Counted from the first letter of the stretch, positions 3,107 to 37,694 are shown. The stretch: 64,000 nucleotides of DNA from Thermodesulfobacteriaceae bacterium (GCA_025062245.1 JANXAD010000003.1:16476-80475); one strand, 5' to 3'. A program made the numbers and translations. Notes: a model not told the origin generated them from the letters alone.

Positions 3107-4927
3107 TTACCATTTTTCAAAATCCGGAGAAACTTTAACTTGGGCTTTTTTTCTTAGCTCCTGATACCACTGATTAAAAAAGACTCTTCGTTTTTCCTCT
3201 AAAAGGTTAGAAACTGTTAACTCTAATTCTTCAGAAAGATAGGTCTTTTTTTCAAAAGGATAAATTTCCTTGATCATAAAAATCTTTATTTCTTCTCCAT
3301 CCCAAAAAGGGTCTTTAATAAATCCCTTAGAACCCATAGAAAAAATTTCCTTAGAGAAAGTAGGTGAAAAGAGCTTTCCAATTTCCTTTCTTAAAACCCT
3401 ATAAGTTCTAATCTGAAAACCTTCTTTTTTAATTTCTTCAGCTCTCAAAGAAAGACTTTGATTAGAGGTAAATTTTTTAATTTTATTTTCACAAATCTCT
3501 TTTCCTTTAATATTTAAATAATCCTCTTTAACCCTTCCTTTGGCCTCTTCAAAGGAAAGATTTTTAGGAGGTTTTTTATCTATTATCTCCACGAAAACTA
3601 TTCCCTTAGGAGGAACTTCTAAAGGAGATAGAAAGTCTCCTTTATTACTTTGAAAAACCTTTAAAATTCCCTCTGAAGATCCTAAAATTTTTTTAACACC
3701 TTCTTTACCAAGAAAATCTGTTTCTACCAGCTGAACTTGAGTTTTTTTAGCCCAGTTAGTTAATCCGTTTTCCTTAATTATTTCTTGATAAAGACTGTGA
3801 GCTTTACTTTTAGTTAGATTTTTAATTTTTTCAGAAATTAGTTCCTTTCTAATTTCTGATTCTATCTCCTTTAAACTTAAAACTCTTTCTGGTTTAACTT
3901 CTTCTACCCCTAAAATAAAATAGTTAGTCCCTATTTTTACCGGTCCAACTATTTCTCCTGTTTGAGCTTTCTTTAAAAGATTTCTTATCTCTTCAGGTAA
4001 AGCCTGTTCTTCAAACCAGTCTCCCTTTTTGATTCCAAACTTTTCAAAATCTTTTAAGCCTTTAATTTGGTCCCTTGTCTTTTGCGCCTCTAATAGAGCC
4101 TTTTCATCTGCCCCGGAGACAGTTATTCTCCTCAGTTTTATTTTAAAGGGCTGTTTAAATCTTTCTAAATTTTCTTGATAATATTTTTTTATTTCTTCAG
4201 GTTCTAACTTAACCTCCCTTTGATAGGGCAAAAGATATAGGGCTAACTTAACCTTTTCTTCCTCTACATATAGATTTCTATGGGTTAAAAAATAGTTTTC
4301 CAAATCCTTTTCTGAATAATTAACCCAAACTTTACACTTACTTAAAGGTAAACTCAATTCCTCTAAAACCAAGGTTTGGTGAGAATAATTCAAAAATTCT
4401 TCTGCTTCTTTAGAAGAAACTAATAAAGGGGTCGTCAAAATCAAAGTAAGTTTTTTTTCTAATAGATCGAACTTTACTAACTTTTCAAAAAAGGAAGGAG
4501 AAATACCTAAGCTTCTTAAAACAGAATGATACTTATTAGGGTCAAATTGGTTAGCCTCTCTGAAAAGAGGAAATTGAGAAATAGCTAAACCTACTTCAGG
4601 GGAGGTTATCTTAATACCTACTTTTTCTGCTTCTCTTTCTAAAAGTTTCATTTTTATTAAATTTTCTAAAACCTGCTCTTTAATCTTAAGCTTTTTAAGT
4701 TCTTCGGAAGATAATTCACCAAAGGTTTGTTTTAGTTGAAAGGTTTGAAATTGGTAATACTCTTGAAATTCTTTAGAAGAAATAGTTATTCCGTCTACTT
4801 TAGCTACCCAATCTTTTTTTTCAGAAGTAAAGGTGCCTATTCCCCAGAAAATAAAAACTATAATGATAACCGCTAAAAAAATTTTGGCTAATAAAGAAGT
4901 GGCCCCTTTTCTTAAGAAGTCAAACAT
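3107..4927 (-). CDS. ppiD: PpiD/SurA-N domain periplasmic chaperone, membrane-anchored
   Basis: N-terminal TM anchor IFLAVIIIVFIFWGIG, then WVAKVDG..I and a SurA_N-like helical region; 606 aa as typical for PpiD; rotamase motifs are degenerate. Confidence 0.8.
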   Translation of the reverse strand: MFDFLRKGATSLLAKIFLAVIIIVFIFWGIGTFTSEKKDWVAKVDGITISSKEFQEYYQFQTFQLKQTFGELSSEELKKLKIKEQVLENLIKMKLLEREAEKVGIKITSPEVGLAISQFPLFREANQFDPNKYHSVLRSLGISPSFFEKLVKFDLLEKKLTLILTTPLLVSSKEAEEFLNYSHQTLVLEELSLPLSKCKVWVNYSEKDLENYFLTHRNLYVEEEKVKLALYLLPYQREVKLEPEEIKKYYQENLERFKQPFKIKLRRITVSGADEKALLEAQKTRDQIKGLKDFEKFGIKKGDWFEEQALPEEIRNLLKKAQTGEIVGPVKIGTNYFILGVEEVKPERVLSLKEIESEIRKELISEKIKNLTKSKAHSLYQEIIKENGLTNWAKKTQVQLVETDFLGKEGVKKILGSSEGILKVFQSNKGDFLSPLEVPPKGIVFVEIIDKKPPKNLSFEEAKGRVKEDYLNIKGKEICENKIKKFTSNQSLSLRAEEIKKEGFQIRTYRVLRKEIGKLFSPTFSKEIFSMGSKGFIKDPFWDGEEIKIFMIKEIYPFEKKTYLSEELELTVSNLLEEKRRVFFNQWYQELRKKAQVKVSPDFEKW

Positions 4928-9242: not shown

Positions 9243-10253
9243 CTAATCTAAACTATAGCCAAAATTAAGAAGAGTTTTTTCAGGATCTAAAGAAATTACT
9301 AATTCCCTAAGAAGTCTTCTTAGTTTTTCTCTATCTTGTTCTGCTTCAATCTCTCTCTTTAACACCTCAGGCACCCTTCCAAGCTTAACCTCTACCACCT
9401 CAAGCACCATCTCTTGAGCTTCTCTTAATAATCCCTCTTGTATCCCCTGCTGTAATCCCTTTTGTAATCCCTCCTGTAATCCCTGCTCATATTTTCTCTC
9501 TGAATAGGTCTTCAATTCAAACTCCATCCTCTCACCCCCTACCTCCCTTAATTTAATCCACACTTCCTCCTCGTCAAGCCCCTTCTCCTTAGACACTATC
9601 AACAAAAATAACTCCACATACCATCTCTCCCTCTCACTTAACTTCCCCACCACCTCCACAAACCTTACTACCCCCCTTAATAACTCCTCCAGAGGTCTAT
9701 CAAGACTCCTAAGAAGATAAAGATAGGCATACACCACACTATAAAGCTCAATCCTTTTCAAAAGCTCCTCTCGGTTAAGTCTCACCAAGTCAAGAAGTAA
9801 CACCCTGTAGTTTAGAAAATAAGACTTAATTTCAGGAGGTATCTCAAAAAGCTCCACAAACTCAATGGGGTAAAGCCAAGGCTTCTCTCCGTGATAAAAA
9901 ATAAAAGGCAACACAGGAATAGGTTTTGAGCCTTCTTTGAGGGCTTTTTCAAAAAGAGAGGAAATATAGTTTAGGATTTGAGCATAGACTGAGACATCTT
10001 GATAGGACTTGTGTTCAAGTAAAATGTAGAGGTGAAGAGGTTTTCCAAGGAGGGGAACTTGGACGATAATGTCAGGAAGAAGGCGCTTTTCTTTAGAGAG
10101 AGAAATCTGTTCTTCAGGGACGAAAACAAGTTGGGAGAGGTCTAAGTGAGAGAGAATCTCCTTGGGTAAGAACTCTTTAAGAAAGACTTTAAGATTTTCA
10201 GGGTCCTTAAGTATAGCCTTAGCATAAAGGTCGTAGGGCTTCGGTTCAGACAT
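9243..10253 (-). CDS. Rpn family recombination-promoting nuclease / putative transposase (PD-(D/E)XK, transposase_31-like)
   Basis: N-terminal PYDLYAKAIL, LPDIIVQV...LYILLEHKSYQD, PVLPFIFYHGEKPW; C-terminal (Q/E)EGL repeats followed by a small helical domain. Confidence 0.9.
   Translation of the reverse strand: MSEPKPYDLYAKAILKDPENLKVFLKEFLPKEILSHLDLSQLVFVPEEQISLSKEKRLLPDIIVQVPLLGKPLHLYILLEHKSYQDVSVYAQILNYISSLFEKALKEGSKPIPVLPFIFYHGEKPWLYPIEFVELFEIPPEIKSYFLNYRVLLLDLVRLNREELLKRIELYSVVYAYLYLLRSLDRPLEELLRGVVRFVEVVGKLSERERWYVELFLLIVSKEKGLDEEEVWIKLREVGGERMEFELKTYSERKYEQGLQEGLQKGLQQGIQEGLLREAQEMVLEVVEVKLGRVPEVLKREIEAEQDREKLRRLLRELVISLDPEKTLLNFGYSLD
9429..9486 (-). repeat. 12-bp tandem repeat (~5 units) coding EQGL-QEGL-QKGL-QQGI-QEGL inside the Rpn gene
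   Basis: Plus-strand units AATCCCTCCTGT / AATCCCTTTTGT / ATCCCCTGCTGT. Confidence 0.85.
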
Positions 10254-11190: not shown

Positions 11191-11237
11191 TTGACAAAAT
11201 GTTTAAAATAGCCTAAACTTGTAAGCAAGTGCTTACA
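11191..11237 (+). promoter_or_regulatory. Sigma70-type promoter of the RND operon with a palindromic operator just downstream of the -10
   Basis: TTGACA (11191) - 17 bp - TAAACT (11214); perfect inverted repeat TGTAAGCA-AG-TGCTTACA at 11220-11237. Confidence 0.75.
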
Positions 11238-11266: not shown

Positions 11267-12385
11267 ATGAAAAAGTTTTTTTATTTTTTTATAATGAGTC
11301 TTTCTCTTTTATTATCTTTCTGTAGTTCCTCTAAAAAGGAAACTTCATCTCCAACTTTAACTTTACCAGTTACCGTTTTTAAAGTTCCTGAACCCAAAAG
11401 TATTCCTGTAGACCTTCTTTATCCTGGAAAAACCAAAAGTATTTCTAAGGTAACTGTGACAGCAAGAATTACGGGTTTCTTAGAAAAAATGTATTTTAAA
11501 GAAGGAGAGTGGGTTAAAAAGGGAACTCTTCTTTTTTTGATAGAACCTGAGATTTATCAAGCAGAATACGAAAGTGCTAAAGCTCAACTGGAAAGAGCTC
11601 AAGCTCAATTTGAAAAGGCAGAAAAGGATTGGAAAAGAGTTAAAGCCTCTTTTGAAGACCGAGTGGTAAGTGAAGAGGAAAGGGATAAAGCCCTATCTAA
11701 TTATCAAAGTGCTCTAGCTGAACTTAGAAATGCTCAAGCTCGCTTAAAACAAGCAGAAATAAACTTAAAATATACTAAAGTTTATGCTACAGCCTCAGGA
11801 ATAGTTGGTGAAAGACTGGTTGATGTAGGAAACTTAGTTAGCCCTGGAACTCCCTTAGTTTCCATAACTGAAATTGATCCCCTTTATGTGGAATTTTCCT
11901 TTCCAGATAGAGATCTTTTAAAATTGGAAAGGGAAGTTGTAAAAAAGGGTTTTTCTAAGTTTAAAGGGTTAAAAGTGGAACTTCTTTTAGAAACTGGAGA
12001 AACCTATCCCAAAACAGGGTATATCGATTTTGTGGATAGCTTTATAGATGAAAAAACTTCCTCAGTTAAGGCTCGAGCAGTTTTCCCTAATCCAGAAAGA
12101 AAACTCTTGCCTGGACAATTTGTAAGGGTTGTAATCAAGGGACTTAAAAGAGAAAAGGTGATAGTGGTTCCACAAAAAGCAGTTATGCAAACTCCTCTTG
12201 GAACTACAGTTTATGTGGTAGAAAATGAAAAGGCAATTTCTAAAATAATTAAATTAGGAGAAAGAAGTGGAGAATATTTTGTGGTAGAGGAAGGGCTTAA
12301 ACCTGGAGACCTGGTAATTTTAGATCAACTTATGAAACTTAGACCAGAAGCACCGGTAAAGATTGAAAGGATAGTGGAAGAATAG
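11267..12385 (+). CDS. RND efflux periplasmic adaptor (MFP, AcrA/MexA-like), probable lipoprotein
   Basis: Signal peptide ending in Cys, VTVTARITGFLEKMYFKEGEWVKKG..LFLIEP, helical hairpin, LLPGQFVRV. Confidence 0.93.
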   Translation: MKKFFYFFIMSLSLLLSFCSSSKKETSSPTLTLPVTVFKVPEPKSIPVDLLYPGKTKSISKVTVTARITGFLEKMYFKEGEWVKKGTLLFLIEPEIYQAEYESAKAQLERAQAQFEKAEKDWKRVKASFEDRVVSEEERDKALSNYQSALAELRNAQARLKQAEINLKYTKVYATASGIVGERLVDVGNLVSPGTPLVSITEIDPLYVEFSFPDRDLLKLEREVVKKGFSKFKGLKVELLLETGETYPKTGYIDFVDSFIDEKTSSVKARAVFPNPERKLLPGQFVRVVIKGLKREKVIVVPQKAVMQTPLGTTVYVVENEKAISKIIKLGERSGEYFVVEEGLKPGDLVILDQLMKLRPEAPVKIERIVEE

Positions 12386-12389: not shown

Positions 12390-15300
12390 GTGATTTCTCG
12401 TTTCTTTATAGAAAGACCGAGACTTTCTGCAGTTCTTTCCATTATTATCTTTTTGATGGGAATTTTAGCTATGCAGGGTCTTCCTATTAAAGAATATCCT
12501 GCTCTTACACCTCCTCAGGTGGTGGTGACTGCAGTATATCCTGGAGCAGATGCAGAAACCTTAGTCAACACCGTAGCCGCGCCCCTTGAAGAAGCTATCA
12601 ATGGTGTTCCTAACATGATTTATATGACAAGTATTGCTTCCTCAAGTGGGATTTTAAGTATTAATGTTTTTTTTGAAGTAGGCACAGATATAAATGTAGC
12701 CAAAATGGATGTAAACAATCGAGTTCAAACAGCCCTTCCCAGACTTCCTGAAGAAGTAAGAAGACAGGGACTTCAAGTGAGAGAGCGTTCTCCTGATTTG
12801 GTAAGTGTGGTTACCTTTTTTTCCGAGGGCCAAAAAAGAACTCCAGTAGAAATTGCAAACTACATCATTTTAAACATACTTGAGGACCTTAAAAGAGTTC
12901 CTGGAGTAGGAGATGTGATAGTTTTTGATGAAAAGAGATATTCCATACGGGTTTGGCTAAAACCGGATAAGTTAGCTAAATTTAACTTAACTCCTTTAGA
13001 GGTCTATTCAGCTATCTCCAGACAAAATCAACAATTTTTTGGAGGAGGAATTGCTCAAGAACCCCTCTCTTCAGAACCTACCTTTTCCTATGTAGTAAAA
13101 GGAGAACCCAGACTTCAAAGAGTTTCTCAATTTGAAGATATCATCCTTCGCACCCATCCCGATGGTTCTGCCCTCAAACTAAAAGATGTAGCTACCATTG
13201 AGCTTTCCTCAGAACACTTTAACCGAAACTCCTTCTTTAAAAAACAACCTGTTATTCCTGTGGGAATTTTTTTAGCCCCTGGAGCTAATGCCTTAGATGT
13301 AGCTAAAAATGTAGATAAAACCTTAAAAGAACTCTCTAAGAGGTTTCCTTCTGACCTCAAATATTTTTATCCCTATCAGCCTACGGTTTTTATAGAAGAG
13401 TCTATAAAAGAAGTCATAATCACCTTTATCATAGCGGTAATTCTTGTAATCTTAGTAGTTTACTTTTTCTTAGGTAGTCTTAAAGCCACCCTTATTCCCA
13501 TTTTAGCTATCCCTGTTTCTATCATAGGAAGTTTCGCCGGGCTTTATGTTTTTGGTTTTTCCATTAATCTTTTAACTCTCTTTGGACTGATCTTAGCTAT
13601 CGGACTGGTGGTGGATGATGCTATCATTGTTATTGAAAATGCAGAAAGAATAATAAGAGAGGAGAGGCTTCCTCCTAAATTGGCCACTATCAAGGCTATG
13701 GAAGAAATAACTAGTCCTATTATAGCTATAGTTTTAGTTCTATCAGCAGTGTTTATTCCTGCTTCTTTTACAGGAGGCTTTACAGGAGTTTTTTACCGAC
13801 AGTTTGCTATTACTATTGCTATTTCTATGGTTTTATCAGGAGTAGTAGCCTTAACCCTAACTCCAGCACTCTGTGCTCTCTTTTTAGAGGAAAAGGAAGT
13901 TAAACCCCTTTTACCCGTAAGAATTTTTCAAAAAATTTTTGAAGCCTCTCGTAAGCTCTTTTTAAAAGGAGCTGAATTCTTTATAAGGTTTTTTCCCATA
14001 GGAGTTTTTATCTTTTTGATTATTCTTCCTCTCACCTATTTTCTGATAAAAAGGCTTCCTACTGCTTTAGTTCCTTTAGAGGATAGAGGGTCTCTTTTAG
14101 TCTTTGGTTACTTACCTCCAGGCTCTTCTTTAAAGAGAACTTCAAAAGTGGTAAGTGAGATAGAAAGTCTTTTAGAAAAAACACCTGAAATAAAAGAGTG
14201 GGTAGCGGTATCTGGTCTTGACTTACAAACCTTTGCTTTTAGAAGTGACGCTTGTGTAGGCTGGATTCGTTTAAAGGATTGGGCTGAAAGAGAAAAAAAG
14301 GAAAGCTCCTCCTTTGCTTTGTCTGAAAGGTTGTCCAAAGCATTGGCTTTTAACAGAGAAGCTTTAATCTTCGTAGTTAATCCTCCTCCTATTATAGGAA
14401 TGAGTATTACGGGAGGTTTTGAACTCTATGTTCAAGACCGAATCGGTGGTTCTATTTCTGATTTAGCTAAGTATGTAAGTGAATTAGTCTTTAAAGCTAA
14501 TCAGAGACCTGAACTTATGGCAGTTCGAACTACCCTTAATCCTAATGTGCCCCATTATAAAGTGACAGTTGACAGAGAAAAAGCTATGGCTTATGAGGTT
14601 GAAGTTGAAGATATCTATAAAACCCTAGCGATGACCTTAGGTAGTTATTATGTAAATGACTTTAATCTTTACGGAAGGGTCTTTCATGTGAATATGCAAG
14701 CAGAAGGTGAATTTAGAGACGATTTAAGAGACTATTCCTATCTTTTTGTTCGTTCTAAAAGGGGTGAGCTGGTTTCTTTAAGTGCTTTAATAAAAATAGA
14801 AAAGCTTTCTGACGCCTTAGTTACTGAAAGATTTAATATGTTTAATGCTGCCAAAGTAACTGGAGAGCCTAAACCTGGTTATACTTCAGGAGATGCTATC
14901 AAGGCTATTTTAGAAGTAGCTCAAGAAGTATTACCTCCTGGTTATACCATTGCTTGGTCCGGGACCTCCTATCAAGAAATGAAAGCTCAAGCTAAAACCG
15001 GTTGGGTTTTAGCCTATGCAGTTCTTTTTATCTTTCTAATTTTAGTGGCTCTTTATGAAAGCTGGACCTCTCCTTTAGCTATTATTTTTTCTGTTCCTTT
15101 TGCCATCTTTGGAGCTTCCTTAGGATTAAATCTTTTCAGACTGGAAAATGATGTATACTTTCAAGTAGGCCTTCTTACCCTTATTGGACTTTCAGCCAAA
15201 AATGCTATTTTAATTGTAGAATTTGCTGAAGAAAGGTTAAAAAAATATAAAATGAGTCTGTTAGAGGCTACCTTAGAGGCTGCCCGACTAAGATATAGAC

Positions 15301-16916
15301 CTATTATGATGACTTCTTTTGCCTTTATAGCCGGAGCTCTTCCGTTGATGTTTAGCAGTGGAGCTGGGGCCAATAGCAGAAATCTGATCGGAACCACTGT
15401 GGTAACCGGAATGCTTTTGGCAACCCTTTTGGGAATCTTTTTTATTCCTCTTTTTTATTACTTAGTGGTTAAAGTCAGAGAAAAATTCAAATTTCCTTTT
15501 AAAACCAATGGAAAGAAACTGTTCTTTCTTATTTTTTTGTTTATCTTTAAGGCTTGTAGTTTAGCACCAGAATTTAAAAAACCTGAAGTAGATTTGCCTT
15601 CTGAGATAAGAGTTCCTAAGGTGGAAAATACTACTTCAGTTAATCTTTACTGGTGGAAGGAGTTTAAGGATCCCTTTTTGGAAGAGCTAATAGAGGTGGC
15701 TTTAAAAAATAACGAAGATCTTCTTATGGCAGGAGCTCGAGTAGACCAAGCTTTAGCCTTACTTCAGGCCACAGAAACTGAGCTTTATCCTTCCTTTTAT
15801 TACTCAGGAGAAGTCCTAAGACAAAGGTTATCTGAGGAGACTCTTAATCCCTTAGGGGGAAGAACTTATACCACCTTTTCTCTTTCTTCGCTGGTTTCTT
15901 ATGAGCTTGATCTCTGGGGAAGACTTAAAAATCAACAAAAAGCAGCTCTTTCTAATTATTTAGCTACTAAGGCTGGAAAAGAAGCTTTACAAATTTCTAT
16001 CATCTCCTCAGTAGCTACTACTTACTTCGAACTTATATCCTTAGAAAAACAAATTAAAATAGCTCAAGATTTTTTAGAAAAACATAGGCATATCTATGAA
16101 TTTAGAAAACTTCAATTTAAAAATGGTCTTATAGATGAACTGGTAGTAAAGCAAGCTAAGGCTGAATATGAAGCTACTCAAATTCTTTTAGAGGATCTTA
16201 AAAATAGAAAGGAAAGAGTGAAAGCTCTTTTAGCCTTACTTACAGGGCTTAGTCCTAAGGAACTTTTTGAAAAGGAGATTAAAATTAAAGAGGAATTTCC
16301 TAAGCCCCTTCCTATTCCTGCTATGCTTCCTTCGGAGATTCTTCAAAGAAGACCAGACTTAGTGGAAGCTGAAGAAAGGCTTAAAGCTGCTAATTTTGAA
16401 GTAGGAGTTGCCCGATCTTTATATTTTCCAAGAATTTTTTTAACTGGAGGAATAGGCTTTCAAAGTGAAGAGTTGGCTAATTTTATCAGGGGTTCAGCAA
16501 CTGTCTGGAACTTAGGAATATCTTTGATAGGTCCACTTTTTGACTTTGGGCGTATTAAAAGTGAGATAGAATTTAAAGAGGCTCAAAAAAGGGAGGCTCT
16601 TGGGCAATATCTTAAAACGGTTAAGACTGCCTTTAGGGAAGTTTATGAAGCCCTTTCTAACTTGGAGGCTTCTTATGAAAAACTTTCTTCCCAAATAGCT
16701 CAAGTTGAAACCTTAGAGAGGGTGTTAGAACTTTCTGAAAAAAAATATACCAGAGGTTTAGTAAATTATTTAGTAGTTCTTGATGCTCAAAGAAATCTTC
16801 TTAAAGCTAAACTTAACTTAGTATCCTTAGAATTTGAAAGACTTAAAAATTATGTCTTTTTGTATAAAGCTTTAGGAGGCGGATGGGATAGATCTCTTGT
16901 TTTCTCAAACTTTTAG
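12390..16916 (+). CDS. HAE1-type RND permease (AcrB/MexB-like) fused in frame to a complete OprM/NodT-type outer-membrane factor
   Basis: MISRFFIERP start; proton-relay motifs VVDDAIIVIEN, SAKNAILIVE, RYRPIMMTS intact. After TM12 a hydrophobic stretch ends in KAC (Cys1056, nt 15555), followed by WWKEFKDPFLEELIEVALKNNEDL, YELDLWGRL, RRPDL..AE and LYKALGGGW. Confidence 0.9.
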   Translation: MISRFFIERPRLSAVLSIIIFLMGILAMQGLPIKEYPALTPPQVVVTAVYPGADAETLVNTVAAPLEEAINGVPNMIYMTSIASSSGILSINVFFEVGTDINVAKMDVNNRVQTALPRLPEEVRRQGLQVRERSPDLVSVVTFFSEGQKRTPVEIANYIILNILEDLKRVPGVGDVIVFDEKRYSIRVWLKPDKLAKFNLTPLEVYSAISRQNQQFFGGGIAQEPLSSEPTFSYVVKGEPRLQRVSQFEDIILRTHPDGSALKLKDVATIELSSEHFNRNSFFKKQPVIPVGIFLAPGANALDVAKNVDKTLKELSKRFPSDLKYFYPYQPTVFIEESIKEVIITFIIAVILVILVVYFFLGSLKATLIPILAIPVSIIGSFAGLYVFGFSINLLTLFGLILAIGLVVDDAIIVIENAERIIREERLPPKLATIKAMEEITSPIIAIVLVLSAVFIPASFTGGFTGVFYRQFAITIAISMVLSGVVALTLTPALCALFLEEKEVKPLLPVRIFQKIFEASRKLFLKGAEFFIRFFPIGVFIFLIILPLTYFLIKRLPTALVPLEDRGSLLVFGYLPPGSSLKRTSKVVSEIESLLEKTPEIKEWVAVSGLDLQTFAFRSDACVGWIRLKDWAEREKKESSSFALSERLSKALAFNREALIFVVNPPPIIGMSITGGFELYVQDRIGGSISDLAKYVSELVFKANQRPELMAVRTTLNPNVPHYKVTVDREKAMAYEVEVEDIYKTLAMTLGSYYVNDFNLYGRVFHVNMQAEGEFRDDLRDYSYLFVRSKRGELVSLSALIKIEKLSDALVTERFNMFNAAKVTGEPKPGYTSGDAIKAILEVAQEVLPPGYTIAWSGTSYQEMKAQAKTGWVLAYAVLFIFLILVALYESWTSPLAIIFSVPFAIFGASLGLNLFRLENDVYFQVGLLTLIGLSAKNAILIVEFAEERLKKYKMSLLEATLEAARLRYRPIMMTSFAFIAGALPLMFSSGAGANSRNLIGTTVVTGMLLATLLGIFFIPLFYYLVVKVREKFKFPFKTNGKKLFFLIFLFIFKACSLAPEFKKPEVDLPSEIRVPKVENTTSVNLYWWKEFKDPFLEELIEVALKNNEDLLMAGARVDQALALLQATETELYPSFYYSGEVLRQRLSEETLNPLGGRTYTTFSLSSLVSYELDLWGRLKNQQKAALSNYLATKAGKEALQISIISSVATTYFELISLEKQIKIAQDFLEKHRHIYEFRKLQFKNGLIDELVVKQAKAEYEATQILLEDLKNRKERVKALLALLTGLSPKELFEKEIKIKEEFPKPLPIPAMLPSEILQRRPDLVEAEERLKAANFEVGVARSLYFPRIFLTGGIGFQSEELANFIRGSATVWNLGISLIGPLFDFGRIKSEIEFKEAQKREALGQYLKTVKTAFREVYEALSNLEASYEKLSSQIAQVETLERVLELSEKKYTRGLVNYLVVLDAQRNLLKAKLNLVSLEFERLKNYVFLYKALGGGWDRSLVFSNF

Positions 16917-23600: not shown

Positions 23601-23673
23601 CTTAAGTTATTTTACCCCTTTAAACTTGTTTTTTCTTTTTTTGAAGTTTAAAATTTTCTTTTAAAAAGTAAAG

Positions 23674-24627
23674 AGGGGAGGAAAGGCTATGGGAAAACTT
23701 TTAGAAAAAATAGAACTTGGCAATTTAGAACTTAAAAACAGAACTATAAGGTCTGCCACTTGGGAAGGGATGTGTGATAAAGAGGGAAAACCTACGGAGA
23801 GATTAATTGAGCTTTATGAAGAATTGGCTCAAGGAGAAGTTGGTTTAATTATTACAGGTTATGCCTATGTTAGTCCAGAGGGGCAACAACTTCCGGGTAT
23901 GTTGGGACTTCACCAGGATGAAAATATAGAACCTCTTCAGAGGATGGTTGAAAGGGTAAAAGCTAAGGGAGGGGTTATAGCTGTATAACTTGGAAGACCT
24001 AAAAAGGGTGGTAGAAGACTTTGCTAAGGCTGCCGAAAGAGCTAAAAAAGCTGGCTTTGATGCTGTTCAACTTCACGGAGCTCACGGATATTTAATTAAT
24101 GAATTTTTGTCTCCTCTTACTAATCGAAGAGCTGATGAATATGGAGGAAACTTAGAGAATAGAGCCAGATTCTTAAAGGAAATTATAGAAGCTATAAGAG
24201 AGAGGGTAGGAGATGGATATCCCCTTTTTATAAAACTTAATGGAGATGATTTTTTAGAGGGTGGTTTTAATATAAGGGAGGCTGTTGAGGTTTCAAAATG
24301 GCTTGAGAGTTGGGGGATAGGAAGCCTATCATAAGGAGCTTTCTTTTGAGATTAAAAAGGCTGTTTTTAAAGTGCCTGTAGGTTTAGTGGGAGGTATCAG
24401 AAGTTTTGAAGTAGCAAGTGAACTTTTAGAGAAGGGATATGCGGATTTAATTTCTTTTTCAAGACCTTTTATTTGTGAGCCCCAATTGATTAGGAGGTGG
24501 AAAGAGGGGGACTTAAGGAAAGCTCAATGTATTTCCTGTAGTGAGTGTCTTTTGGCTGGAGTTAAGGAGGGAGGAATTTACTGTGTAGCCCGTAAAAAAG
24601 GAAAAATTTAAAAAAGGTTTAATTTCT
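23674..24627 (+). repeat. 954-bp direct repeat, copy 1 (covers the RBS and whole broken OYE gene)
   Basis: Colinear with 26075-27028 at offset 2401; I count about 10 substitutions. Confidence 0.95.
23689..24611 (+). pseudogene. NADH:flavin oxidoreductase / Old Yellow Enzyme, broken into three reading frames (copy 1)
   Basis: LKNRTIRSATWE, GLIITGYAYV; QLHGAHGYLINEFLSP..NRR.DEYGG..ENRARF; VPVGLVGGIRS..ADLISFSRPFICEP. TAA at 23986 and frame changes near 23990 and 24321. Confidence 0.88.
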
Positions 24628-24738: not shown

Positions 24739-25149
24739 TTAAATTTTAATAATTCTTTCAGCCAGAGAAATTATATATTCTGTTCCCTCTATAGCCCATT
24801 TTGCTTCTTCTGCAGTATATTCTTCTGTAGGAATAAAATCTATATCTCCATAAAGGGATAGTTCTCTTTCCTTTCTTAAAGATTTTGAAATTTTAGACAT
24901 CCTTTTTAGCTCCTCTTCAGAAAATTCTGGAAACTTATCTTTATGGTGAAAGAAAAGGAAACTTACTTCATGGTATTTAGGTGGTTCAATGCCTCTTTGT
25001 CTGAGCATGGCTTTAGTGGTTAATTCAACGGCCTCTTGAGCCTCTCTTATTACATCAGAGTAAGCTTCTCTTTCGTATAAAAACTTTAACATTTCAAATC
25101 TTACCTTAGCTTTTTTCAGATAACTTTTAGCTAAATCTTCAAAAGTCAT
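24739..25149 (-). CDS. HEPN domain protein (toxin partner of an MNT-HEPN pair)
   Basis: YSDVIREAQEAVELTTKAML..GIEPPKYHEV and LRKERELSLYG; ATGA overlap with the upstream MNT gene. Confidence 0.88.
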   Translation of the reverse strand: MTFEDLAKSYLKKAKVRFEMLKFLYEREAYSDVIREAQEAVELTTKAMLRQRGIEPPKYHEVSFLFFHHKDKFPEFSEEELKRMSKISKSLRKERELSLYGDIDFIPTEEYTAEEAKWAIEGTEYIISLAERIIKI

Positions 25150-25637
25150 AATTTTATGGTTTCTCCTGGCTTAATATCAGGTTTTAAAACCCAATACCAT
25201 GCATTTCCTAACCAATAACGTTTAGCTCCCAAGCTTTTAAGTTTCTCTTTTAATTTCTCCAATTCCTTTTTAAAAAAGTCTTCTTTATCGTAAAGAATTT
25301 GAGCCTCTTCCACTAAATCTAAAAAAAGAGGACTTCCCATTTTTACTTCTTCAGGTGTTTTCAAAACAGGAGATATATAAGTATTTATACCAATCTTTTC
25401 CAGACTTTTAAGATACTCTTCTATTTTTTCTTCGATTTCCATAAATTCTGTGGTCCTTTTCAGTCTGCCCTTGGGAAGGTCTTTTACCACTATGAGAAGA
25501 TCTATATCTGAATCAAATCTTTGAGTTTCTCTGGCTACAGAGCCAAACAAAACTATAGAAATAAGACGCTCTTGGTAAAAACTCTTAATTTCTTTAACTA
25601 ATAGATTAATTAATTCTTGGTATTTTTCCTTTAACAT
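25146..25637 (-). CDS. Minimal nucleotidyltransferase (MNT) antitoxin
   Basis: IVLFGSVAR.....DSDIDLLIV (GS...DxD motif). Confidence 0.9.
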   Translation of the reverse strand: MLKEKYQELINLLVKEIKSFYQERLISIVLFGSVARETQRFDSDIDLLIVVKDLPKGRLKRTTEFMEIEEKIEEYLKSLEKIGINTYISPVLKTPEEVKMGSPLFLDLVEEAQILYDKEDFFKKELEKLKEKLKSLGAKRYWLGNAWYWVLKPDIKPGETIKL

Positions 25638-26074: not shown

Positions 26075-27028
26075 AGGGGAGGAAAGGCTATGGGAAAACT
26101 TTTAGAAAAAATAGAACTTGGCAATTTAGAACTTAAAAACAGAACTATAAGGTCTGCCACTTGGGAAGGGATGTGTGATAAAGAGGGAAAACCTACGGAG
26201 AGATTAATTGAGCTTTATGAAGAATTGGCTCAAGGAGAAGTTGGTTTAATTATTACAGGTTATGCCTATGTTAGTCCAGAAGGGCAACAACTTCCGGGCA
26301 TGTTGGGACTTCACCAGGATGAAAATATAGAATCTCTTCAGAGGATGGTTGAAAGGGTAAAAGCTAAGGGAGGAGTTATAGCTGTATAACTTGGAAGACC
26401 TAAAAAGGGTGGTAGAAGACTTTGCTAAGGCTGCCGAAAGAGCTAAAAAAGCTGGCTTTGATGCTGTTCAACTTCACGGAGCTCACGGATATTTAATTAA
26501 TGAATTTTTGTCTCCTCTTACTAATCGAAGAGCTGATGAATATGGAGGAAACTTAGAGAATAGAGCCAGATTCTTAAAGGAAATTATAGAAGCTATAAGA
26601 GAGAGGGTAGGAGATGGGTATCTCCTTTTTATAAAACTTAATGGAGATGATTTTTTGGAGGGTGGTTTTAATATAAGGGAGGCTGTTGAGGTTTCAAAAT
26701 GGCTTGAGAGTTGGGGGATAGGAAGCCTATCATAAGGAGCTTTCTTTTGAGATTAAAAAGGCTGTTTTTAAAGTGCCTGTAGGTTTAGTGGGAGGTATCA
26801 GAAGTTTTGAAGTAGCAAGTGAACTTTTAGAGAAGGGATATGCGGATTTAATTTCTTTTTCAAGACCTTTTATTTGTGAGCCCCAATTGATTAGGAGGTG
26901 GAAAGAGGGGGACTTAAGGAAAGCTCAATGTATTTCCTGTAGTGAGTGTCTTTTGGTTGGAGTTAAGGAGGGAGGAATTTACTGTGTAGCCCGTAAAAAA
27001 GGAAGAATTTAAAAAGGATTTAATTTCT
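26075..27028 (+). repeat. 954-bp direct repeat, copy 2
   Basis: About 99% identical to 23674-24627; its last ~20 bp overlap the 3' end of the 27009-28304 gene. Confidence 0.95.
26090..27012 (+). pseudogene. NADH:flavin oxidoreductase / Old Yellow Enzyme, broken into three frames (copy 2, same lesions as copy 1)
   Basis: Same stop and frame breaks as 23689-24611; four amino-acid differences (P/S, P/L, A/V, K/R). Confidence 0.88.
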
Positions 27029-28304: not shown

Positions 28305-28441
28305 TATTTATAAAATAATATAATATTTAAAATATTATCTTGCAAGACAATGTCACCACCTTTTGGTTACAAATAAAAAACAATTAGGTGACAAGAAATT
28401 TTTTAAGAATGTGTTATTCTAAAAATTATTAGGGAGGTGTG

Positions 28442-29152
28442 ATGGATAATAAAATAAAACTAAATTTACTTATTAAAATTAAAAACCAGCTTTTAGCTGA
28501 GGCTTTTCTTTTTTATCTTAGTAACTCCCAATCTCTTAAAAATAAATTTGAATTTCAAATTGATTTAAAGCCTCAAAATGAGAGAATTTATGAGATAGTA
28601 ATTTTTGATAAAAGTACTCTAAGGGAAAGTAAGCCTGAGGAAAGTAAGACTGAGGACTATTTTTCTTCCAAAAAACTTCTTTTAGACGACGGTTCTTTGG
28701 AAGAGGAGATCGTTTTTTTATTTTTATATTATAGACTTTCAGGAGTTCTTTCTTCAGATATTTCCTTATCTCTTTTTGGTAAATGTCTTGAAGTAGTGTT
28801 AAGGGGTGAAATTTGGGTGAGTAATCATTTAGTTAAAAAAATTTGCGAAAATTACGACAGTTTTTTTACTAAAAAGGGGCTTGAAAATTTAACCTTTAAG
28901 GAAAGGGAAGTTGTTAAGCTTATTTGTGAAGGACTTAGTAATAAGGAAATAGCCTTAAGACTTTTTATTTCAGAACAAACTGTTAAAACTCACTTAAACC
29001 ATATTTTTAAAAAAACCGGGGCTAAAAATCGAAATCAATTAATTAAAATGTATTTCTATGCCATAGGTAAAGAGAGGGTCCAGGTTAGTTCTGAAGATCA
29101 AATTCAAACCTCAAGACCTATCAAAAAGCTTTTAAAGCTTAAAAGAAGTTAA
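28442..29152 (+). CDS. csgD: CsgD-like LuxR/NarL-family regulator (degenerate receiver + HTH)
   Basis: VVLRGEIWVS..LV, LTFKEREVVKLICEGLSNKEIALRLFISEQTVKTHLNHIFKK; directly upstream of the curlin genes. ATG 28442 or GTG 28439 after AGGGAGG. Confidence 0.72.
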   Translation: MDNKIKLNLLIKIKNQLLAEAFLFYLSNSQSLKNKFEFQIDLKPQNERIYEIVIFDKSTLRESKPEESKTEDYFSSKKLLLDDGSLEEEIVFLFLYYRLSGVLSSDISLSLFGKCLEVVLRGEIWVSNHLVKKICENYDSFFTKKGLENLTFKEREVVKLICEGLSNKEIALRLFISEQTVKTHLNHIFKKTGAKNRNQLIKMYFYAIGKERVQVSSEDQIQTSRPIKKLLKLKRS

Positions 29153-29368
29153 TTTTAGGTTTTAAAACTTAAGTATTAGAAAATTTTATAACTTTTAAAT
29201 TAAATCTTTTAATTATTTCTTCTCTACCTTTTGGTTAATTTTAATTTTAAAAATACCTTTTAAACTCTCTTCTAAGATGAAAAAACTAAAGGAAGAGAAA
29301 AAGTTAAAAGAGGCTACAACCCCGTTGAGGGATGGTAGTAAAAAACAAAACCTTAGAGGAGGTGTGCT

Positions 29369-29845
29369 ATGTTTAAAAAAATTGCTTTAGGAGTAGCTTG
29401 TTTAGGTTTATTAGTTTCAACCTCAGTTTGGGCAAATGGTCCTGGTGGTGGCTTTGGAGGAGGTTGTGGAGGTGGAGATTTATGTGAAGTTAAAAGGGAT
29501 TTAGATATTCATTTGGGTTTGGATCTTAAACTTGATCTTGATGTTTGTGCTGATTTTGGAAATGCAAAGGATGATTATTACAGTGCTCAAGCTGTTATAC
29601 TTCAAGCAGGTGAAGGAAATGAAGCAACTATTACACAACAGGTAACTAATGCACAGGGAATCATAATTCAAGTTGGAGAGGATAATGTGGCTGAAACAAC
29701 TCAGAGTGGAGCTAAGGATTTTGCTATGACAATTCAAGTTGGTTGCTTAAATGAAGCTACAATTAAACAAGGACAAGCTGGAAATATGGCTGCAGTTATT
29801 GGACAGTATGGAAACTCAAATGTAGCTACGATAACTCAACCATAA
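29369..29845 (+). CDS. csgA: Curlin major-subunit candidate (CsgA-like)
   Basis: Sec signal ending VWA, Gly-rich N-terminus, then Q-x-G-x-x-N-x-A-x-x-x-Q repeats (QAGEGNEATITQ, QVGEDNVAETTQ, QVGCLNEATIKQ, QYGNSNVATITQ); strong SD; hairpin after the stop. Confidence 0.75.
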   Translation: MFKKIALGVACLGLLVSTSVWANGPGGGFGGGCGGGDLCEVKRDLDIHLGLDLKLDLDVCADFGNAKDDYYSAQAVILQAGEGNEATITQQVTNAQGIIIQVGEDNVAETTQSGAKDFAMTIQVGCLNEATIKQGQAGNMAAVIGQYGNSNVATITQP

Positions 29846-29855
29846 GAAATTGTGT

Positions 29856-29877: not shown

Positions 29878-29890
29878 TTAAGGAGGCTTT

Positions 29891-30427
29891 ATGAAATCCC
29901 ACTTTTTAAAGTTTATAGGTTTTTGTTTTTTAAATTTTTCCTTAACCTTTCCTCTTCAAGCTCAAATAAATTATCAAGTAGATGATGGCTTTCCTACAGA
30001 ATATTTAGAAAAAATTGTTAATTTAGCTACGGATATAAAAATTGATTTAGATATAGAAACTTCTTTAAATTTAGATATTCCCGTTAACGAGGTTAGTCAA
30101 GCAGTAATCGTCCAAATAGGAAATCAAAATCAAGCTTATCAAACTCAATATGGAATTTCTAATATAGCACTGATTTATCAAGAGGGAAATGAAAATTATG
30201 CCTTTCAAAAGCAAGAAGGAAATTATAATCAAGCTTATATTATTCAACAGGGTTTCAATAATTACGCTTATCAAGAACAGCTTTCAAATTATAATACAGC
30301 TATTGTTATTCAACTTGGTTCCAATAATCAAGCTTATCAGTATCAAGGACTTCACGGAGGGGTTGGTTATAAAAGCACTATTATTCAACAAGGAAACGGT
30401 AATGTGGCAACTATTTATCAATATTAG
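29891..30427 (+). CDS. csgB: Curlin minor/nucleator candidate (CsgB-like)
   Basis: Signal peptide ending LQA, then about nine curlin half-repeats (QIGNQNQAYQTQ, EGNENYAFQKQ, QGFNNYAYQEQ, LGSNNQAYQYQ, QGNGNVATIYQ). Confidence 0.75.
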   Translation: MKSHFLKFIGFCFLNFSLTFPLQAQINYQVDDGFPTEYLEKIVNLATDIKIDLDIETSLNLDIPVNEVSQAVIVQIGNQNQAYQTQYGISNIALIYQEGNENYAFQKQEGNYNQAYIIQQGFNNYAYQEQLSNYNTAIVIQLGSNNQAYQYQGLHGGVGYKSTIIQQGNGNVATIYQY

Positions 30428-30435: not shown

Positions 30436-30828
30436 ATGAAGTGGATGTTTTTAGGTTTTTTTCTTATTCTTTTAATTTATTCCCTCTCTATAATAGAGGG
30501 TAAAACTATTGAAGACTTTCCTGTAGAAATAAATTTGGCAGTAGAAAGAGAAAAGGGATTTTTGAAGGTTTATACCGATTGTCATAATCTTTCCTCCGAG
30601 AAAAGGGAATTTAAGATAATAATTAAAATTGAAAAAACTGGAAAAACAGGTAAATCAAGCATGTTACAGAGTAAAAAAGTTAAACTTTTACCTCAAGAAA
30701 GATCTAGACCTGTGATAGCCTTTTTAGGTGTAAAAAGAGAGGACTTTTACCTTATAGAGTGCCAAATTTTTGACGAAAAAAAGAGACTCGTTTTTTATAA
30801 AATTTTAACTTCTCAGGCTAATTCATGA
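30436..30828 (+). CDS. csgH: CsgH-like curli accessory chaperone
   Basis: Signal peptide, K-x-G-x-x-G-x-S-x-x-x-Q motif (KTGKTGKSSMLQ), two Cys; lies between the curlins and csgE. Confidence 0.6.
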   Translation: MKWMFLGFFLILLIYSLSIIEGKTIEDFPVEINLAVEREKGFLKVYTDCHNLSSEKREFKIIIKIEKTGKTGKSSMLQSKKVKLLPQERSRPVIAFLGVKREDFYLIECQIFDEKKRLVFYKILTSQANS

Positions 30829-33133: not shown

Positions 33134-33853
33134 ATGCATCGTGAAGCTCAGAAAAGTTATGTTATTCATAATTATTATGACCTTATTCGAGCTTTAAAGG
33201 AAAATCCTGAATGGTTAGAGGAATTAAGAAAGTTAATCTTAACTCATGATTTACTTGAGCTTCCCAAAAAATTTGAGGAATTTCTAGAAAAGGAATTTAG
33301 ACCTTTGAAAAGTGATGTAGAAACTTTAAAAAGTGATGTAGAGATTTTAAAAAGCGATGTAAAAACTTTGAAAAGTGATGTAGAAACTTTAAAAAGGGAT
33401 GTAGAGATTCTTAAAAGGGATGTGGGGGTTTTAAAAGTGGATGTAGCCAACCTTAAGGGAGACAATTTTGAAAGAAAGGTTAGAGAAAGGGCTCCTGCCT
33501 TTTTTGGAAAACATTTCAAAAAAGTGAAAGTTATTCCTATTGAAGAATGGGCAGATAAATTAGATGAGACTCAAGAAGCTGGAATAATTTCTTCTGAAGA
33601 AAGAAAGGAAGCCTTAAATTTAGACCTTCTAATTAGATGTAAAAGGTGGGAAGACACGGAGGAAATCCTTTTGGCAGTTGAGGCCTCTTACACCGCAGAT
33701 GATAAAGATGCAGTAAGGGCTCTGAAAAGAGCAGAGATTTTCTTTAAAGTTTATCAAATAAAAACCATTCCTGTGGTAATCGCTAAGGAACTCTCTCCTG
33801 TCTTAGAAGAGAAATATCCTGAAGTTCTTTTTATCAGAGTTGAGGCAGAATAA
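33134..33853 (+). CDS. Heptad-repeat coiled-coil protein with a C-terminal restriction-endonuclease-like domain (family common in thermophiles)
   Basis: DLIRALKENPEWLEELRKLIL..DLLELP N-terminus, LKSDVET-type heptads, C-terminal DLL...LAVEAS..AD..DA.RA..RA. Confidence 0.6.
   Translation: MHREAQKSYVIHNYYDLIRALKENPEWLEELRKLILTHDLLELPKKFEEFLEKEFRPLKSDVETLKSDVEILKSDVKTLKSDVETLKRDVEILKRDVGVLKVDVANLKGDNFERKVRERAPAFFGKHFKKVKVIPIEEWADKLDETQEAGIISSEERKEALNLDLLIRCKRWEDTEEILLAVEASYTADDKDAVRALKRAEIFFKVYQIKTIPVVIAKELSPVLEEKYPEVLFIRVEAE
33305..33463 (+). repeat. 21-bp tandem repeat (~7.5 units) coding LKSDVET/LKRDVEI heptads
   Basis: Units such as TTGAAAAGTGATGTAGAAACT and TTAAAAAGTGATGTAGAGATT. Confidence 0.92.
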
Positions 33854-35560: not shown

Positions 35561-37210
35561 CTAAGGAATAAGATATTTTTGTCTTTCTTTGGAAACCCAC
35601 CACCTTTCTATGTTATAACTGAGACCTATAGGGGCTGGCTTTATTCCTTGAAATCTTTTATGTATAGCCTCTAAATTTACAGGTATATAAAGAAAGGTAT
35701 AAGGTTGCTCATCAGCCAGTATTTCTTGAACCTTAAAATAAATTCTCTTTCTCTTTTCTTGATCCAAAGTATATCTTCCTTCCTCTAAGAGTTTATCTAA
35801 GAATGGGTTTGAATAACTTACAAAATTTAATCCAGGAGATTTTATTTTGGAAGAGTGAAAGATATCGTAAAGATCTGGATCAGGACCTGTTGACCATCCA
35901 AGTATTACCGCTTCAAATCTACGGGTATCAATAAATTGATGAATAAGGGTAGTCCATTCCATCACTCTGATGTTGACTTTAATTCCTATTTTAGATAATT
36001 GTCTTTGAATAATTTGAGCAGCTAACATCCTGGCAAGGTTTCCTTGATTTACTAAAAGAGTAAATTCCAAGGGAATTCCGTCCTTTTCAAGCCATCCCTT
36101 TTGACCCCAATAAAATCCTACTTCTTTTAAAAGTTCTAAAGCCTTTTGAGGATTATATTCACAACTTTTCTCTATTTCTTTATTATAAAACCAAGTATCT
36201 GGTTTATAGGGTCCGTAAGCAGGAAGTCCCTCTCCTAAAAGAGCTCCCTTTACTATTTCTTTCTTATCAATGGCATGACAAAGAGCCTTTCTCACCCTTT
36301 TATCCCTGAAAAAGGGGTGATTTAGATTATACCCAAGATAGGTAAAAGAAAAAGATGAATATCTATAAATCTCAAAATTTTCAGCTAAATCTTTTTCTTT
36401 TTGGATTTTAAAGTATTGAAGAGGAGTTAAAGCTATTCGGTCTACCCCTCCAGATTTCAATTCCATAAAAAGGGTTGAGGGATCTGGAATTATTCTATAG
36501 ATTAGATAATTCAGATAGGGTCTTCCCTCATAGTATAGAGGATTGTATTTTAAAACTATTTCTTGTTGAGTTTTCCATCTTTCAAGAAGAAAAGGACCGT
36601 TTCCTACAGGTTTCCTTCCAAAGACATTTTTAAAATAATCCAGACTTTGATTTTCTAAAAGATGTTTAGGAAGGACCACTAAGTTGCCCCAAGAGGGAAG
36701 AGCAGGGGCAAAGGGACGATGATAGGTTACTTTAAAAGTGTAGGGATTAAGAATTTTAAATTCCTTTACCTCTAAAAAATCACTCACATAAGGGGAAGGA
36801 ATTTGATTAGAAGTTATAAGTTTATACCCAAAAAAAATATCTTCAGCAGTTACTTCCTTTCCATCAGCCCACTTAACTCCCTTTTTAAGATAAAAAGTGA
36901 TTGATTTCTGATTCGGAGAAATCTCAAATTTTTCTGCTAAGTCTCCTATTATTTTTAGGTCTGGACTATATTTCACTACACCTAAAAAGAGGTGACTACT
37001 TATAGTATGACTGGTTAAATCGGTAGCTATCATAGGAATTAAGATGCTCGCATCTGCTATAGTCCCTATAACTAAAGCATCTCCGTAATCTGGACTCGAA
37101 TTCTCCTTAGAGAATTCACCCTTTAAAAAAGAAATTCTAAAAAGGAATCCAAATAGGAAAAATAATGCCAAAAAGATTAAACCTTTAAAAAGGTAAATCT
37201 TCTTCATCAA
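35561..37210 (-). CDS. Peptide ABC transporter substrate-binding protein (OppA/DppA family 5)
   Basis: GDLAEKFEIS..ITFYLKKGVKWADGKEVTAEDI, PVGNGPFLLERW, RVRKALCHAIDK. Confidence 0.92.
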   Translation of the reverse strand: MMKKIYLFKGLIFLALFFLFGFLFRISFLKGEFSKENSSPDYGDALVIGTIADASILIPMIATDLTSHTISSHLFLGVVKYSPDLKIIGDLAEKFEISPNQKSITFYLKKGVKWADGKEVTAEDIFFGYKLITSNQIPSPYVSDFLEVKEFKILNPYTFKVTYHRPFAPALPSWGNLVVLPKHLLENQSLDYFKNVFGRKPVGNGPFLLERWKTQQEIVLKYNPLYYEGRPYLNYLIYRIIPDPSTLFMELKSGGVDRIALTPLQYFKIQKEKDLAENFEIYRYSSFSFTYLGYNLNHPFFRDKRVRKALCHAIDKKEIVKGALLGEGLPAYGPYKPDTWFYNKEIEKSCEYNPQKALELLKEVGFYWGQKGWLEKDGIPLEFTLLVNQGNLARMLAAQIIQRQLSKIGIKVNIRVMEWTTLIHQFIDTRRFEAVILGWSTGPDPDLYDIFHSSKIKSPGLNFVSYSNPFLDKLLEEGRYTLDQEKRKRIYFKVQEILADEQPYTFLYIPVNLEAIHKRFQGIKPAPIGLSYNIERWWVSKERQKYLIP

Positions 37211-37607
37211 AAGGGGGTTCTTCTGCTAACTGGGAAGGGGAAAAATCTTCTTTAAGAGAGGTATTTTCAGAGGGAAAAGACTTTTTATTATCTAAAATTT
37301 GTAAATTTTGAGCTACAATTTCCGTTACGTATTTTATATTTCCCTGTTTATCTTCAAATTTTCGAGTTCTTAATTTACCTTCTACATAAATTCTCGTTCC
37401 TTTATTTAAGTATTCTCCGCATATTTCAGCTAATCTTCCAAAGGCTACAATTCTGTGCCATTCAGTTAGAACTTCCTTTTCTCCATCTTTGATAATCACT
37501 TCATTAGTGGCTATTCTGAAGACGGCTACAGGTTTTCCATCTAAGGTATATCTAATTTCTGGATCTGCTCCTAATCTTCCAAGAAGGAGTACTTTATTGA
37601 CACTCAT
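37185..37607 (-). CDS. ssb: Single-stranded DNA-binding protein
   Basis: MSVNKVLLLGRLGADPEIRY, TEWHRIV.FGRLAE, acidic tail DEEDLPF. Start moved to 37607 because the track's longer ORF runs into the tRNA. Confidence 0.96.
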   Translation of the reverse strand: MSVNKVLLLGRLGADPEIRYTLDGKPVAVFRIATNEVIIKDGEKEVLTEWHRIVAFGRLAEICGEYLNKGTRIYVEGKLRTRKFEDKQGNIKYVTEIVAQNLQILDNKKSFPSENTSLKEDFSPSQLAEEPPFDEEDLPF

Positions 37608-37618
37608 ATTTTGACTCC

Positions 37619-37694
37619 TGGGGAGGTCGACGGGACTCGAACCCGCAACACCCGGGGCCACAGCCCGGTGCTCTACCTTTGAGCTACGACCTCC
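37619..37694 (-). tRNA. tRNA-His (GUG) with encoded G-1 and CCA
   Basis: GGAGGTCGTAGCTCAAAGGTAGAGCACCGGGCTGTGGCCCCGGGTGTTGCGGGTTCGAGTCCCGTCGACCTCCCCA: acceptor GAGGTCG/CGACCTC, anticodon stem CCGGG/CCCGG, loop CT-GTG-GC, T-loop GTTCGA. Confidence 0.97.

Follow-up and report, generated by a model that had tools for sequence, protein, structure and literature searches.

Efflux operons of the MexAB-OprM and CmeABC type carry separate genes for a periplasmic adaptor, a permease from the resistance-nodulation-division (RND) family and an outer-membrane factor (OMF), in that order. Here we describe an operon in a stretch of 64,000 nucleotides from a Thermodesulfobacteriaceae bacterium (GCA_025062245.1, JANXAD010000003.1:16476-80475; hereafter, the window) that has the same gene order, the same three protein families and a cysteine in register with the lipidated one, but that lacks the stop codon of the RND gene and the start codon of the OMF gene and carries the OMF signal peptide internally, after 12 transmembrane (TM) segments. 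The closest mechanistic analogue known to us is FbcH of Bradyrhizobium japonicum, a cytochrome b-c1 precursor that, according to work by Thony-Meyer and colleagues of about 1989-1991, is reportedly cut at an internal signal peptide. FbcH likewise consists of a polytopic inner-membrane protein followed by a periplasm-exposed partner, with the internal signal after the last TM helix; it differs in that a type-I signal peptidase makes the cut and neither product leaves the inner membrane, whereas the window has a type II signal and a proposed outer-membrane product. A natural single-chain fusion of two adjacent genes of an RND-superfamily machine is found in SecDF of Thermus thermophilus (PMC8277102), which, unlike the protein as we read it here, is not cleaved and has both halves in one membrane.

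The locus in the window is a normal adaptor-pump-channel operon whose last two genes have been merged into one frame (Table 1). Sequence comparison shows a genuine, conserved fusion on which selection acts; its junction is a homologue of an OMF signal peptide, and the layout recurs independently. We propose that the product is a polyprotein, which is probably lipidated by the diacylglyceryl transferase Lgt and cut by signal peptidase II immediately before Cys1056.

The long open reading frame (ORF) starts with GTG, 4 nt past the stop codon of the adaptor gene, and we take this codon as the true start because homologues begin MISRFFIERPR. Its translation reads ...FYYLVVKVREKFKFPFKTNGKK-LFFLIFLFIF-KA-C1056-SLAPEFKKPEVDLP... 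at the junction, the part from the cysteine to the stop codon comprising 453 residues. The RND part matches Pfam ACR_tran over residues 2-1026 (E=0, profile positions 1-1020 of 1021), NCBIfam NF000282 (RND_permease_1, a model of the HAE1 subfamily) over residues 3-1027 (1268.8 bits, cut-off 1250) and TIGR00915 (1099 bits, cut-off 940). A stand-alone RND permease has about 1030-1050 residues and a free cytoplasmic C-terminus; here the chain runs on for 480 residues. These match TIGR01845 (outer_NodT) over residues 1048-1498 and profile positions 2-460 of 460 without insertions (336 bits, cut-off 210), and because the match reaches profile position 2 it begins inside the signal-peptide region of the family. 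Two Pfam OEP stretches extend to residue 1496. The OMF part aligns over its full length with OprM (1wp1, chain residues 1-455, E=8e-68) and with CmeC (2e-60), and these matches to solved OMFs are decisive for its predicted fold. The adaptor matches TIGR01730 (RND_mfp) with 285.5 bits (cut-off 94.9). In family terms the three parts are ordinary: HAE1 RND, NodT/OprM OMF and RND adaptor. Translation, Pfam and NCBIfam bore out every detail of the initial annotation, which had described a single 1508-residue RND and OMF reading frame with an internal lipoprotein-like signal.

Might the fusion be an artefact of sequencing or assembly, or a recent frameshift that has turned the gene into a pseudogene? 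The initial annotation had raised this concern, and the unfused layout is indeed only a small indel away. Moreover, one relative (L168, Thermodesulfobacteriaceae UBA6232) carries a homopolymer frameshift elsewhere in the gene: at about positions 3490-3560 of its sequence an extra A in a run of eight splits the fused gene near residue 517 of the RND part into pieces of 524 and 1001 residues, the latter still with the fused junction, the split reflecting either an error of sequencing or a genuine frameshift. In the window, however, the joint contains no homopolymer, and comparison with the unfused operon L167 reveals that the stop codon and the ATG have been erased rather than merely shifted. 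Contigs from three independent runs, X1 (2014), X2 and X3 (2021, a different study), cross positions 15480-15560 without indels and with a few substitutions elsewhere; the runs containing this sequence are metagenomes from hot springs. A protein search retrieved 19 clusters of fused homologues of 1493-1520 residues, with 49-100% identity to the query over 99-100% of its length; the closest entry in the database, P0001 (labelled Thermodesulfobacterium sp.), is listed as 100% identical. With these and the fusions in closed isolate genomes of other phyla described below, full-length homologues of about 1500 residues, which the initial annotation had suggested looking for, exist in independent genomes.

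The homologues also carry the marks of function. An alignment of the fused lineages showed that the junction varies in length, always by whole codons, and that D409 and D410 (in VVDDAIIV) and K937 are unchanged in all 19; judging by motif position, we take these residues to be D407, D408 and K940 of AcrB, the Asp-Asp pair of TM4 and the Lys of TM10 that form the proton relay. Relative to the fused locus L001 (84% identical), synonymous divergence (dS) is about 1.0 and the ratio of nonsynonymous to synonymous divergence (dN/dS) comes to 0.069 in the RND part and 0.13 in the OMF part. Such low ratios at this dS indicate that both halves have long been kept functional after the fusion, evidently under strong purifying selection; inside the fused Caldimicrobium clade, identity drops to 66%. 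Independent assemblies, in-frame indels and dN/dS thus rule out an artefact or a pseudogene, an origin to which we give next to no credence.

The unfused relatives disclose how the fusion may have arisen. The isolate Thermodesulfobacterium hveragerdense DSM 12571 (L002) has an RND gene that ends in ...KITGRK-TGA and whose TGA overlaps the OMF gene's ATG (ATG-AAA...). Its OMF starts with MKKSKLTILGLSMFLVFGC/SLAPELKKPDLPLP, and in the alignment this sequence is in register with KKLFFLIFLFIFKAC/SLAPEFKKPEVDLP of the window. This operon and that of a Nitrospirota metagenome-assembled genome (L167) resemble the window in sequence (70-71% identity in the RND part, 50-56% in the OMF part) and have a homologous RND tail and OMF signal, the tail FKPNGEKA-stop of L167 being the counterpart of FKTNGKK in the window linker; they differ from it in keeping the ATGA overlap of stop and start, so that the product is two polypeptides, the OMF one with its signal at the N-terminus. 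Sixteen close unfused relatives have overlaps of stop and start, of 4 nt (six loci), 8 nt (one), 11 nt (eight) or 14 nt (one), and only two distinct operons among the close unfused relatives have a gap between the two genes. With an overlap of 4-14 nt between the RND stop and the OMF ATG, a small indel would be enough to merge the frames. We therefore envisage an ancestral layout of overlapping stop and start codons from which a small indel fused the genes and made the OMF signal peptide internal. According to the initial annotation, a stop codon and a distinct ATG in close relatives would speak against a genuine fusion. Such relatives do occur (T. hveragerdense and L167), but because the fused state recurs in independent assemblies and is maintained under selection, they reveal the origin of the fusion rather than refute it.

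The junction itself is homologous to a lipoprotein signal and is proposed to act like one, though it is not canonical. Cys1056 is present in 19 of 19 fused homologues, with Gly, Ser or Ala at position -1 and Ser or Ala at +2 in every one of them; position -3 is Phe in the window and Leu, Phe or Ile in 18 of the 19. The ten residues preceding the hydrophobic stretch (h-region) have a net charge of +4 in the window and of +2 to +5 in the homologues, and the uncharged run before the cysteine measures 12 residues in the window, 12-16 in fused proteins and 8-15 in unfused ones; the h-region of a lipoprotein signal spans about 7-22 residues behind a positively charged n-region, and the segment in the window agrees with this. 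Meanwhile the surrounding columns drift: the mean frequency of the commonest residue is 0.48 across the linker and h-region, as against 0.76 in the RND part and 0.63 in the OMF part, and dN/dS of the junction (versus L001) is 0.40. That the Cys, the -1 and +2 positions and the length of the h-region are kept amid this drift argues that the features of a lipoprotein signal are being preserved. Cys1056 aligns with residue 1 of mature OprM (1wp1), CusC (3pik), CmeC (4mt4), OprN (5iuy), OprJ (5azs) and MtrE (4mt0), and the segment before it corresponds in the alignment to the SilC precursor's signal peptide (9rmm).

Unlike a canonical lipoprotein signal, the segment begins at about residue 1029, behind 12 TM segments. 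Its lipobox is F-K-A-C, which agrees in part with the pattern [LVI][ASTVI][GAS]-C: position -1 fits and Phe at -3 is tolerated, but Lys at -2 is atypical, as the initial annotation had noted. Lipobox patterns of the PROSITE PS51257 type exclude Lys at -2. A permitted residue occupies this position in 16 of the 19 fused relatives, including L001 (LSAC); the Lys is found only in the lineage of the window, where it is present in the three independent assemblies with no variant listed. The initial annotation had also pointed to an out-of-frame ATG just before the h-region as a possible sign of an indel. This ATG exists (positions 15508-15510), but it lies within AAT GGA, which encodes Asn-Gly in the ancestral RND tail and is shared by the unfused L167; it is thereby ruled out as a relic start.

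How might such a precursor be matured? In the AcrB topology the C-terminus of an RND permease is cytoplasmic, and the basic tail and the hydrophobic stretch that follow it are therefore oriented as a signal peptide would be (N-terminus in, C-terminus out). Membrane insertion, lipidation, cleavage and outer-membrane sorting would, we infer, proceed from there. The Sec machinery would insert the internal stretch as it does an N-terminal signal, with the 12 residues crossing the inner membrane from inside to outside, and the 453-residue channel domain would be moved into the periplasm. Lgt would then place a diacylglycerol on Cys1056, signal peptidase II (LspA) would cut between Ala1055 and Cys1056, and the lipidated channel would take its normal route to the outer membrane. 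The pump would retain a short extra C-terminal hairpin, made up of the linker and the spent signal, and the end products would equal those of separate genes, in equimolar amounts. As an indirect control, CsgG, which is encoded elsewhere in the window, begins MKSKIRYGGIFLALALALGGC/AG, a canonical lipobox (...LALALGGC/AG), from which it follows that the organism uses the lipoprotein pathway. Comparison best supports the view of the initial annotation, in which the internal signal acts as a thirteenth TM segment and becomes lipidated and cleaved, given the invariant Cys, the small residue at -1, the unchanged length of the h-region, the alignment with mature OMFs, the lack of an internal start codon that could serve and the recurrence of the layout.

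If the precursor instead remained uncleaved, the hydrophobic stretch would be a permanent thirteenth TM helix and the channel would be covalently tethered to the pump. The single ORF without an internal start and the atypical Lys at -2 are consistent with such a fate, but the uncharged run of 12-16 residues has the length of a signal, not the approximately 20 residues of a stable anchor, and it has been lengthened in no fused clade. A tether, furthermore, would need neither the Cys nor the small residue at -1, yet both are invariant while their neighbours drift, and Cys1056 aligns with the N-terminus by which OprM-type channels are anchored in the outer membrane. Since the chain has no extra linker, a cysteine held at the inner membrane would, given the known dimensions of these pumps, be hardly compatible with a barrel in the outer membrane; and free-standing and fused OMFs share one cluster of at least 90% identity (P0125 with the OMF part of P0011). 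We consider a permanent tether improbable on these grounds, and we would put just as little weight on the notion that some or all of the precursor persists uncleaved in vivo, as a permanent single-chain pump or an obligatory assembly intermediate, the fusion being retained because the tether aids assembly in the heat. Cleavage at or near the junction could also be the work of signal peptidase I or of another envelope protease, perhaps in the lineage of the window alone, with its degraded lipobox. The Lys at -2 is in keeping with this, as is a distant fusion (P0255) with a type-I signal and no Cys, from which it appears that either peptidase could serve. Signal peptidase I prefers small residues at -3 and -1, however, and Phe at -3 in the window, like the Leu, Phe or Ile of 18 of the 19 relatives, is unfavourable for it; only lipidation, moreover, explains the invariant Cys. 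This alternative is, we believe, unlikely.

Could the channel be translated from a start codon inside the long ORF, the fused protein being a by-product? An in-frame Met or Leu codon does lie 12-13 codons before the Cys in L169 and L162, and P0009 reads ...TMVKEKIGLIAILISVSLLGC at this point, but the candidate starts are conserved neither across nor within clades. The only in-frame start in the window and in L001 is a TTG six codons before the Cys, too late for a signal peptide; in L161 and L166 the stretch from TM12 to the Cys is devoid of ATG, GTG and TTG. The survey of start codons rules out an internal translation start for these four, and in several lineages the OMF therefore cannot be made separately; we regard this alternative as very improbable. 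Several points nevertheless weigh against processing by Lgt and signal peptidase II. Besides the Lys of the window, two relatives have His at -2. Neither lgt nor lspA is among the ORFs of the 64-kb window, and our literature search, which was limited, gave no case of Lgt and LspA acting on a signal behind 12 TM segments. For every member of the family, cleavage, lipidation and localisation are inferred from sequence. The junction was checked in assembled contigs, which can hide minority variants. Finally, because very recent fusions would still keep an unused lipobox, only older fused clades are informative, for example Caldimicrobium, with its internal identity of down to 66%, and the clade of the window and L001, at a dS of about 1.

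The layout has evidently changed between fused and unfused more than once. We built a neighbour-joining tree of the RND part (1024 columns, 100 bootstraps) from fused and unfused operons, and in it five or six fused clades alternate with unfused sisters. The window groups with P0002 and L001 in a fused clade whose unfused sister is L167 (bootstrap 76), and a second fused clade of Thermodesulfobacterium is sister to the unfused T. hveragerdense (94). The fused Caldimicrobium clade has L176 and L177 as its unfused sister (100), two fused lineages labelled Nitrospirota bracket the unfused L163 and L164 (98-99), and fused Calditerrivibrio pairs with unfused operons of Hippea and Campylobacterota (61). 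The tree points to at least five changes between the fused and the unfused state in this clade. Both states also occur within single clusters of 90% identity: that of P0008 holds five fused proteins of 1506 residues and seven RND-only proteins of 1037-1045 residues, and that of P0011 holds fused proteins together with the free-standing OMFs P0125, P0131 and P0133. The signal peptide of these three (MRFLVTLLLLVITGC) and the sequence upstream of it are wholly unlike those of the fused P0011, which suggests recombination at the boundary of the signal peptide.

Fusions are not confined to this clade. Two scans of contigs by tblastn joined adjacent but separate RND and OMF genes into apparent matches over positions 1-1500, and frame analysis left L001 as the only true fusion among 160 loci. 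A query consisting of TM12, the junction and the OMF performed better. A search of 1.84 billion representatives with a query spanning the junction yielded 17 further fused clusters at 50% identity, of 1372-1541 residues, each with a single aligned stretch over the joint. The lipobox at the joint is canonical in 15 of these (LSGC, LTGC, LGGC, LGSC and others) and degenerate in one. The remaining one is P0255 (1473 residues, metagenomic), in which an RND permease is joined to a TolC-like OMF without a Cys through ...LILVLALSAPAFS/EETEE; this joint looks like a type-I signal and would represent a second flavour of the polyprotein layout. Members named among the further clusters come from Muribaculaceae, Prevotella, Bryobacteraceae/Acidobacteriota, Sphingobacterium sp. 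SYP-B4668 and Kiritimatiellota bacterium B12222, the last two having closed genomes (WP_270090608.1 and WFB35000.1, respectively). Like the protein of the window, these two are RND-OMF fusions with a lipobox at the joint, but they are only 27-33% identical to it over the junction-spanning query and belong to different phyla, and they very probably arose independently. Neither has any annotation beyond 'efflux RND transporter permease subunit'. The architecture at large is likewise entered in databases under an RND permease name alone, and two JGI entries bear a double one.

What, if anything, does the fusion bring? The initial annotation had linked it to a 1:1 stoichiometry of pump and channel. 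That the fusion exists for this reason finds no support. The fusion may bring no advantage, and a near-neutral change fits better because switching is frequent, even within clusters of 90% identity, and both forms coexist at more than 90% identity. Repeated switching suggests that overlapping stop and start codons make fusion a one-step event, which is apparently tolerated if the downstream protein has its own cleavable signal.

Although the architecture is present in databases, our literature search found no paper on RND-OMF fusions in nature or on processing at an internal lipoprotein signal, a result that, given the limits of the search, does not prove absence. Nor did the search confirm the RND-OMF fusions of heavy-metal pumps mentioned in the initial annotation, and a large review of tripartite pumps from 2021 refers to no RND-OMF fusion in the portion examined. 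If our reading is correct, Lgt and LspA are able to process a signal that lies behind a membrane protein of 12 helices, and the precursor is a natural bacterial polyprotein matured via the lipoprotein pathway, of which the same search turned up no description. The locus also supplies a natural case of strictly 1:1 synthesis of pump and channel from a single message, which is of use in studies of how tripartite pumps assemble and in what order. In addition, dozens of entries labelled 'RND permease' conceal a complete OMF, and counts of OMF genes are consequently too low there.

Table 1. Features of the efflux operon and of the curli locus, in window coordinates
Feature	Position	Strand	Remarks
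Promoter-like site TTGACA-17-TAAACT	11191..11219	+	10/12 consensus matches only
Perfect palindrome TGTAAGCA-AG-TGCTTACA	11220..11237		Directly after promoter-like site, ~30 nt before adaptor ATG
Periplasmic adaptor (membrane fusion protein), 372 aa	11267..12385	+	Pfam HlyD_D23, HlyD_3; TIGR01730
RND permease-OMF precursor	12390..16916	+	One uninterrupted 1508-aa ORF, stop codon included
RND permease part (HAE1, AcrB-type), aa 1-1028	12390..15473	+	Ends with TM12 ...GIFFIPLFYYLVVK
Basic cytoplasmic linker VREKFKFPFKTNGKK, aa 1029-1043	15474..15518	+	Ancestral RND C-terminal tail, now n-region of internal signal
h-region and lipobox LFFLIFLFIF-KA, aa 1044-1055	15519..15554	+	OMF signal peptide retained; proposed transient TM13
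TGT codon of Cys1056	15555..15557	+	Proposed to be lipidated and to become the N-terminus once signal peptidase II has cut
Mature OMF, OprM/NodT-type channel, aa 1056-1508, 453 aa	15555..16913	+	TIGR01845, OEP and OprM match
LuxR/CsgD-like regulator	28439..29152	+	Curli locus
Two curlin-repeat proteins	29369..29845, 29891..30427	+	Curli locus
ORF between curlin-repeat and csg genes	30436..30828	+	Curli locus, followed by CsgE, CsgF and CsgG

The remainder of the operon is unexceptional in its layout. The N-terminus of the adaptor (11267-11323), MKKFFYFFIMSLSLLLSFC/SSS, resembles that of a lipoprotein except for an atypical Phe at -1, and together with F-K-A-C of the OMF this suggests that lipoboxes may be relaxed in this operon. 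The palindrome is a candidate operator of the efflux operon, and no regulator gene, such as one of the TetR type, adjoins it. Downstream, the long ORF is adjoined by argG. Upstream lies a gene for a YhgA-like protein (Transposase_31; 9243..10253, minus strand), followed by about 1 kb without an ORF of at least 60 codons (two ORFs of 33 and 44 codons are present). The motif CTTATTCATCA[AG]GG occurs twice in this ORF-poor stretch, which extends to position 11190 and lies immediately before the efflux operon.

Elsewhere, the window contains a complete curli (type VIII secretion) locus at 28439-32647 on the plus strand; curli genes seem unusual in the thermophilic Thermodesulfobacterium. A direct repeat of about 950 nt, with copies at least 98% identical at approximately 23665-24615 and 26066-27016 (offset 2401 nt), could reflect an insertion into an oxidoreductase gene or a duplication in the assembly. 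Each copy contains a fragment ORF resembling Old Yellow Enzyme (23990..24334 and 26391..26735, one amino acid apart), and the copies flank a pair of genes for a HEPN protein (24739..25149) and a nucleotidyltransferase (25146..25637). A tandem repeat of 21 nt (7 residues) in about 6-8 copies is found at 33288-33446, inside an ORF (33134..33853) for a coiled-coil-like protein with weak Pfam matches. Finally, a tRNA-His gene (GTG anticodon; 37619-37693, minus strand) overlaps the listed start of the ORF for single-stranded DNA-binding protein (37185..37661), whose true start is probably further downstream, since its Pfam match begins at residue 20.

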